NCBI RefSeq assembly: GCF_003334785.1
Contig: NZ_QOWV01000056.1
DNA length: 2,547 nucleotides
Source: Escherichia coli
Lineage (GTDB): Bacteria > Pseudomonadota > Gammaproteobacteria > Enterobacterales > Enterobacteriaceae
Reading direction: 5' to 3' (one strand)
Positions 2,389-2,547 of the stretch are shown here, in pieces. Both the position numbers and the translations under genes were made by a program. Every line of letters starts with the position of its first letter. The first letter of the stretch is position 1. Under the pieces are notes generated by a model that worked only from the letters and a program-made list of their open reading frames with translations, did no database searches and was not told the origin of the DNA.

Positions 2389-2547
2389 ATCAGTGCCAGC
2401 AATACTGTTACGCGTCTACAATGCCGATTCTGTTTGTGCTACGGTTGCACTTACAGTGTAAGCGACTCGTCAGAACCGTATTGATATTTACTGAGAGCTC
2501 AGATCAACTTTCCAGGGCAACAGATCGCGTACCCGGTTTGCCGGCCA

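Follow-up and report, generated by a model that had tools for sequence, protein, structure and literature searches.

A short palindrome at the end of an Escherichia coli contig lies across the junction between a genomic-island pseudogene and an ISCro1-like insertion sequence

The stretch of DNA analyzed here, referred to as the window, comprises 2,547 bp and constitutes the complete draft contig QOWV01000056.1 from E. coli (GCA_003334785.1; L061). From position 1 to about 2457 the window matches a genomic island of the CP4 type that is carried by 77 complete E. coli genomes. The genes of the island encode a DUF932 protein, a DUF905 protein, a 137-aa hypothetical protein and a DUF4339 protein, followed by a small hypothetical protein, and genes for patatin-like, RdcB-family and dynamin-family proteins are located farther along. 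A search with 2440–2547 identified the remainder, 2458–2547, as the right end of ISCro1, an insertion sequence (IS) of the IS66 family. Each end of the window is multi-copy DNA, the left one being the DUF932 gene of CP4-type islands and the right one ISCro1, which explains why the assembly broke there. The 137-aa protein (687–1100, minus strand) has a clear signal peptide and several cysteines, and is conserved in the island beside the DUF4339/GYF_2 protein; it has no NCBIfam match and no Pfam family on record.

The features that concern us are the following:

468–480, 616–628, 1198–1210, 1867–1879 and 2450–2462: perfect palindromes of the 6+1+6 type.

2035–2388, minus strand: the 117-aa open reading frame (ORF), corresponding to the C-terminal 117 codons of a disrupted 152-aa YfjT/YkfB-family (PF27224) gene, a pseudogene remnant.

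2389–2457, minus strand: N-terminal coding remnant of the same gene (codons 13–35), TVSATVAQTESAL*TRNSIAGTD, assigned from translation and alignment to intact 152-aa homologs.

2450–2457: CTTACAGT, the 8 host bases adjoining the IS, presumed to be one copy of an 8-bp target duplication and invariant in empty sites, where TAAAAC comes next.

2450–2462: the palindrome CTTACAGTGTAAG, a composite of host (2450–2457) and IS (2458–2462) DNA, with island homology ending at 2457 and IS homology running from 2458.

2458–2479, minus strand: right terminal inverted repeat of the IS, GTAAGCGACTCGTCAGAACCGT when read from the outer end; most alignments start at 2457/2458, and 16 of the 22 positions match the opposite end of a complete copy.

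2488–2547, minus strand: 3′ end of tnpC by translation, comprising its final 19 codons (...WPANRVRDLLPWKVDLSSQ) and a TAA stop at 2490–2488; the rest of the gene lies beyond the window.

The palindrome at 2450–2462 has perfect 6-bp arms, CTTACA and TGTAAG, around a central G, as described in the initial annotation, which had proposed a possible operator, or the leftover core of a recombination site, upstream of a signal-less paralog. The distance of about 60–75 nt given there for the start of the 117-aa ORF agrees with the 62–74 nt measured from its ATG (2388). The flank was also correctly recognized as GC-richer (0.51 for 2458–2547 compared with 0.39 for the ORF), this flank being the IS itself, and the palindrome is indeed not a LexA box, there being no CTGT-N8-ACAG in the sequence. 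The window is, however, rich in small palindromes overall: five perfect 6+1+6 palindromes are observed where dinucleotide shuffles give 0.74, and with spacers of 0–10 the count is 20 against 8.0. Since all five are equally perfect, the one at 2450–2462 is no better than the other four and is not statistically special on its own. A role as hairpin or terminator was considered for it and rejected, because a 1-nt loop on a 6-bp stem cannot fold.

The right-hand 90 bases of the window have the attributes of an IS66-family terminus. Inverted repeats of this family start with GTAAGCG or GTAACCG (PMC12888890), and the repeat at 2458–2479 begins in this manner. The DDE transposase TnpC is encoded next to this right end, with the codons of 2547–2491 on the minus strand specifying its C-terminus, only the tip of which is inside the window. 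The 90 terminal bases are 100% identical to copies that RefSeq names "IS66-like element ISCro1 family transposase", and most alignments of records with an ISCro1 end (evenly spread sample, 3,892 E. coli records) start exactly at 2457/2458, many of them with 100% identity. ISCro1 is known as an IS66-family element in E. coli ST131, where one copy is located in the afa/dr regulatory region (PMC8764528). The present terminus shares with known ISCro1 insertions such as that copy the identity of the terminal 90 nt to annotated copies, the GTAAGCG start, a tnpC gene that reads towards this end, and a break at the canonical tip; it differs from the ST131 afa/dr copy in its site, which here is a yfjT/ykfB-family pseudogene of a CP4-type island, and in that the last 90 nt of the element are what the window holds.

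Copies with the same end (L002–L004) display the organization tnpA-tnpB-tnpC, and 8-bp duplications accompany related ISCro1 copies. A complete copy of 2,699 bp, which interrupts tssF in strain CUVET16-465 (L003), has the ends GTAAGCGACTCG... and GTAACCGGCTCA... (GTAAGCG.../GTAACCG...) and is bordered on both sides by the 8-bp direct repeat CTTTAATC. About 2,500 of 5,426 genomes contain the ISCro1 end, with as many as 26 places in one genome. When species-representative genomes were scanned for exact matches to it, the single match was on an unrelated contig from a metagenome-assembled genome. This match (L005; SFEB01000082.1, "Clostridiales bacterium", positions 769–794 of a 3.2-kb contig) may reflect contamination of the Clostridiales bin by enterobacterial DNA.

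The exact boundary between host and IS was located by aligning the window with the uninterrupted locus of TW10722 and with three IS copies in unrelated contexts, which places the break between T2457 and G2458. At the uninterrupted site the host sequence reads ...GCACTTACAGT/TAAAACAACAGC..., and the IS side begins with the inverted repeat given above. Because of the position of this break, the palindrome consists of host CTTACAGT followed by the IS tip GTAAG (2458–2462). The best E. coli matches to the window (query 1–2461) all end inside the palindrome, at 2461. An identical junction is present in two independent assemblies, L062 (GCA_002190295.1) and L064 (Logan ERR1948969), and a further contig, L059, stops one base short of it. 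The occurrence of the same junction in L062 and L064 establishes that it is real and that the contig is not a chimera. The 31-nt junction had no exact match in a scan of JGI metagenome contigs.

The locus occurs in 77 complete E. coli genomes, and in every one of them the site is empty, with TAAAAC directly after CTTACAGT and no palindrome. Among 80 fetched loci, the empty site CTTACAGTTAAAAC is found in 22, and the palindrome in three, all of them draft contigs with the same IS junction, i.e., the window's own contig, L062 and L064. Judged from this distribution, the junction is confined to one lineage, and the palindrome did not exist before the insertion.

The uninterrupted locus also reveals what the IS disrupted. 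Its minus strand reads ATG AAA CTG TTA AAC ATT CTT TTA GCT GTT GTT TTA ACT GTA AGT GCA ACC GTA GCA CAA, which is translated as MKLLNILLAVVLTVSATVAQ. This is a typical signal peptide, and it shares the reading frame of the 117-aa ORF. On this strand CTTACAGT reads ACT GTA AG and supplies the codons for T13 and V14 and part of that for S15 of the ancestral signal peptide. The palindrome is therefore not upstream of a gene, as had been assumed, but inside ancestral coding sequence, at signal-peptide codons 13–15. Intact 152-aa homologs with 95%, 85% and 65% identity carry precomputed PF27224 (YfjT) assignments, and the intact gene of strain E2 is annotated in RefSeq as "YfjT/YkfB family phage-associated protein". 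Members of the YfjT/YkfB family (PF27224) have a full length of ~152–155 aa and an N-terminal signal peptide, to which the disrupted gene conforms. The family name is taken from these precomputed Pfam hits and the RefSeq annotation; for the intact homolog P0001, a Pfam-A scan returned no family, and neither did NCBIfam. The in-frame signal peptide of uninterrupted loci and the intact 152-aa homologs together identify the "117-aa signal-less" ORF as the stump of a yfjT/ykfB-family gene. Its suggested relationship to the 137-aa protein (687–1100) did not hold either, BLASTP giving E = 0.49, i.e., no detectable relation.

Intact homologs have Q or W at codon 26, whereas this gene carries an in-frame TAG there (2418–2416 on the minus strand; 6416–6418 in L001). 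TW10722, O157:H7 and several metagenome contigs with an empty site have this TAG as well, and since it is common to empty-site loci, the gene was dead before the IS arrived. In related genomes, RefSeq annotates merely a 57-aa piece at this locus.

It is established where the IS ends, that the site is empty in relatives and which gene was disrupted, and other ISCro1 junctions lack the symmetry (see below). On these grounds the palindrome is best read, at a probability of about 0.93, as a function-free by-product of an ISCro1-like insertion into the signal-peptide codons of an already inactive yfjT/ykfB-family gene. According to this reading, a nonsense mutation from Q/W26 to TAG had already inactivated the gene in the CP4-type island of E. 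coli when an ISCro1-like IS66-family element inserted at codons T13-V14-S15. Host CTTACAGT contains CTTAC, the reverse complement of the IS tip GTAAG, and its fusion with GTAAGCG therefore gives CTTACA-G-TGTAAG. The symmetry is best explained as a coincidence, arising from the codons ACT GTA AGT, which contain GTAAG. We infer that this was a simple insertion in which the 8 bp CTTACAGT were duplicated, so that the other IS end would read ...CCGGTTAC/CTTACAGT/TAAAACAACAGC...; the duplication is deduced because the second copy lies outside the 2,547-bp contig, and it is directly seen for the L003 copy. An insertion of this sort is an already known kind of event.

The proposal that a dimeric regulator binds the palindrome as an operator and controls the promoter of the 117-aa ORF draws on the perfect dyad symmetry and its position 62–74 nt from the ATG, and short perfect dyad symmetry is what 2450–2462 has in common with the operator palindromes of dimeric repressors such as the LexA box. 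In contrast to these, however, it is unconserved, lies outside a promoter, consists for one half of mobile-element DNA and lacks a match to the LexA consensus. Conservation was the check set beforehand for an operator, and it failed in 77/77 complete genomes and the 22 fetched loci with an empty site; the absence of the palindrome from every orthologous locus examined refutes this proposal. Furthermore, codons 13–15 of the ancestral gene are not a promoter position, the IS has displaced the native promoter region that preceded the true ATG, and no minus-strand promoter-like site was found in 2300–2547, a region that also contains no terminator-like site. The ORF downstream is a pseudogene remnant preceded by an in-frame TAG, and four other palindromes in the window are equally good, which leaves an operator extremely improbable. 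An artefact of assembly, in which a short-read contig was wrongly extended into a repeat, might be suspected from the fact that the window is an entire draft contig with repeats at both ends and only 90 nt of the IS. It has practically no likelihood given the identical junction in L062 and L064, the further samples reported for L062, the L059 contig breaking one base away, and a break that falls exactly at the canonical IS terminus. A real IS end that arose by something other than simple insertion, i.e., an IS-mediated deletion or inversion next to the element, or two ISCro1 copies recombining with each other, is unlikely. Under such a rearrangement CTTACAGT would not be duplicated and the rest of the yfjT-like gene would not lie opposite. 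Scans and contig look-ups did not find the other junction; in particular, contigs encoding the neighboring patatin-like protein (two alleles) did not yield the left IS junction, 15 of 15 places being empty sites, and with up to 26 places per genome ISCro1 provides ample substrate for recombination. Nothing speaks directly against a rearrangement, the break at the IS tip fitting either scenario, and the outcome for the palindrome, a fusion of host and IS, is the same in both.

The symmetry could alternatively be a signature of target choice, if the ISCro1 transposase preferred targets similar to the inverted tip of the element, as do IS30 and some IS3-family elements, which insert at sequences resembling their inverted repeats. 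On the minus strand the host flank, GTAAGTGCAACCGT, is loosely like the inverted repeat GTAAGCG...AACCGT, and at unrelated loci the flanks of a few ISCro1 copies match that of the window at 11–13 of 17 positions, among them L002 (3484–3500; E. coli EC19, 13/17) and L003 (3502–3518), the top ones sharing ACGGTTG.A.TTT.A... These flanks were, however, chosen by the search itself. Only 29 of the 3,892 records extend that far into the flank, and in the evenly spread sample hardly any alignment continues past the IS tip; the apparent flank consensus among the best IS matches was rejected as selection bias, the ranking having rewarded flank similarity among ~8,000 places. The likeness of the flanks in the EC19 and L003 copies is probably due to chance. 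For an unbiased set, the 26 nt that begin the IS were matched exactly against IMG/VR contigs, and 46 distinct right-end junctions (L007–L056) were recovered. CTTAC does not occur in the last 12 flank bases of any of these 46 independent junctions, none has a junction-straddling palindrome with arms of at least 6, and one has arms of 5. The absence of such symmetry from all 46 junctions indicates that the symmetry in the window is due to chance and not to a target preference, and a transposase seeking its own tip is accordingly a very improbable source of it. What the set does contain, in the 14 nt outside the right end, is a weak positional bias (n = 46), with A/T at −3 in 41 junctions, T at −5 in 26, G at −11 in 22 and C at −10 in 20. 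The site in the window fits this bias at −3, −10 and −11 and has A instead of T at −5; the bias, a point in favor of tip preference, is unrelated to the palindrome. It is likewise highly doubtful that ISCro1 has a weak target preference, with A/T at −3, T at −5 and GC immediately beyond the 8-bp duplication, combined with an effect of the pseudo-tip CTTAC, 3 bases from the real tip, on transposase binding or excision.

Abutted inverted-repeat junctions occur in IS circles or dimers of the IS3, IS30 and IS21 families. What these share with the palindrome is that an IS tip stands opposite its own first bases in inverted orientation, with a short spacer between; here, however, the mirrored part of the tip is only 5 nt long, and its counterpart is native host coding sequence that predates the insertion, with no second IS end. 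The suggestion of a recombination-site core is borne out only loosely, in that the palindrome spans a junction formed by DNA recombination and has as its right arm the tip of an IS66-family terminal inverted repeat, where the transposase acts, but it is no core for site-specific recombination and its symmetry is incidental (0/46).

Reading 2450–2462 as the by-product of an ISCro1-like insertion removes a false operator lead, and re-annotates the 117-aa ORF as the stump of a YfjT/YkfB-family gene and the GC-richer flank as an ISCro1 end. For scans that work from sequence only, short palindromes at contig ends or at breaks in composition should first be checked for mobile-element junctions.

Of the other perfect palindromes in the window, that at 616–628 forms the center of a longer hairpin. 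It belongs to an inverted repeat at 604–640 with 18-bp arms, AAATAAAGCCCCTGCCAT and ATGGCAGAGGATTTATTT, which are 89% complementary and have A- and T-rich sequence within their outer ends. Situated between the gene for the 137-aa protein and the DUF905 remnant, the repeat resembles an intrinsic terminator acting in both directions.
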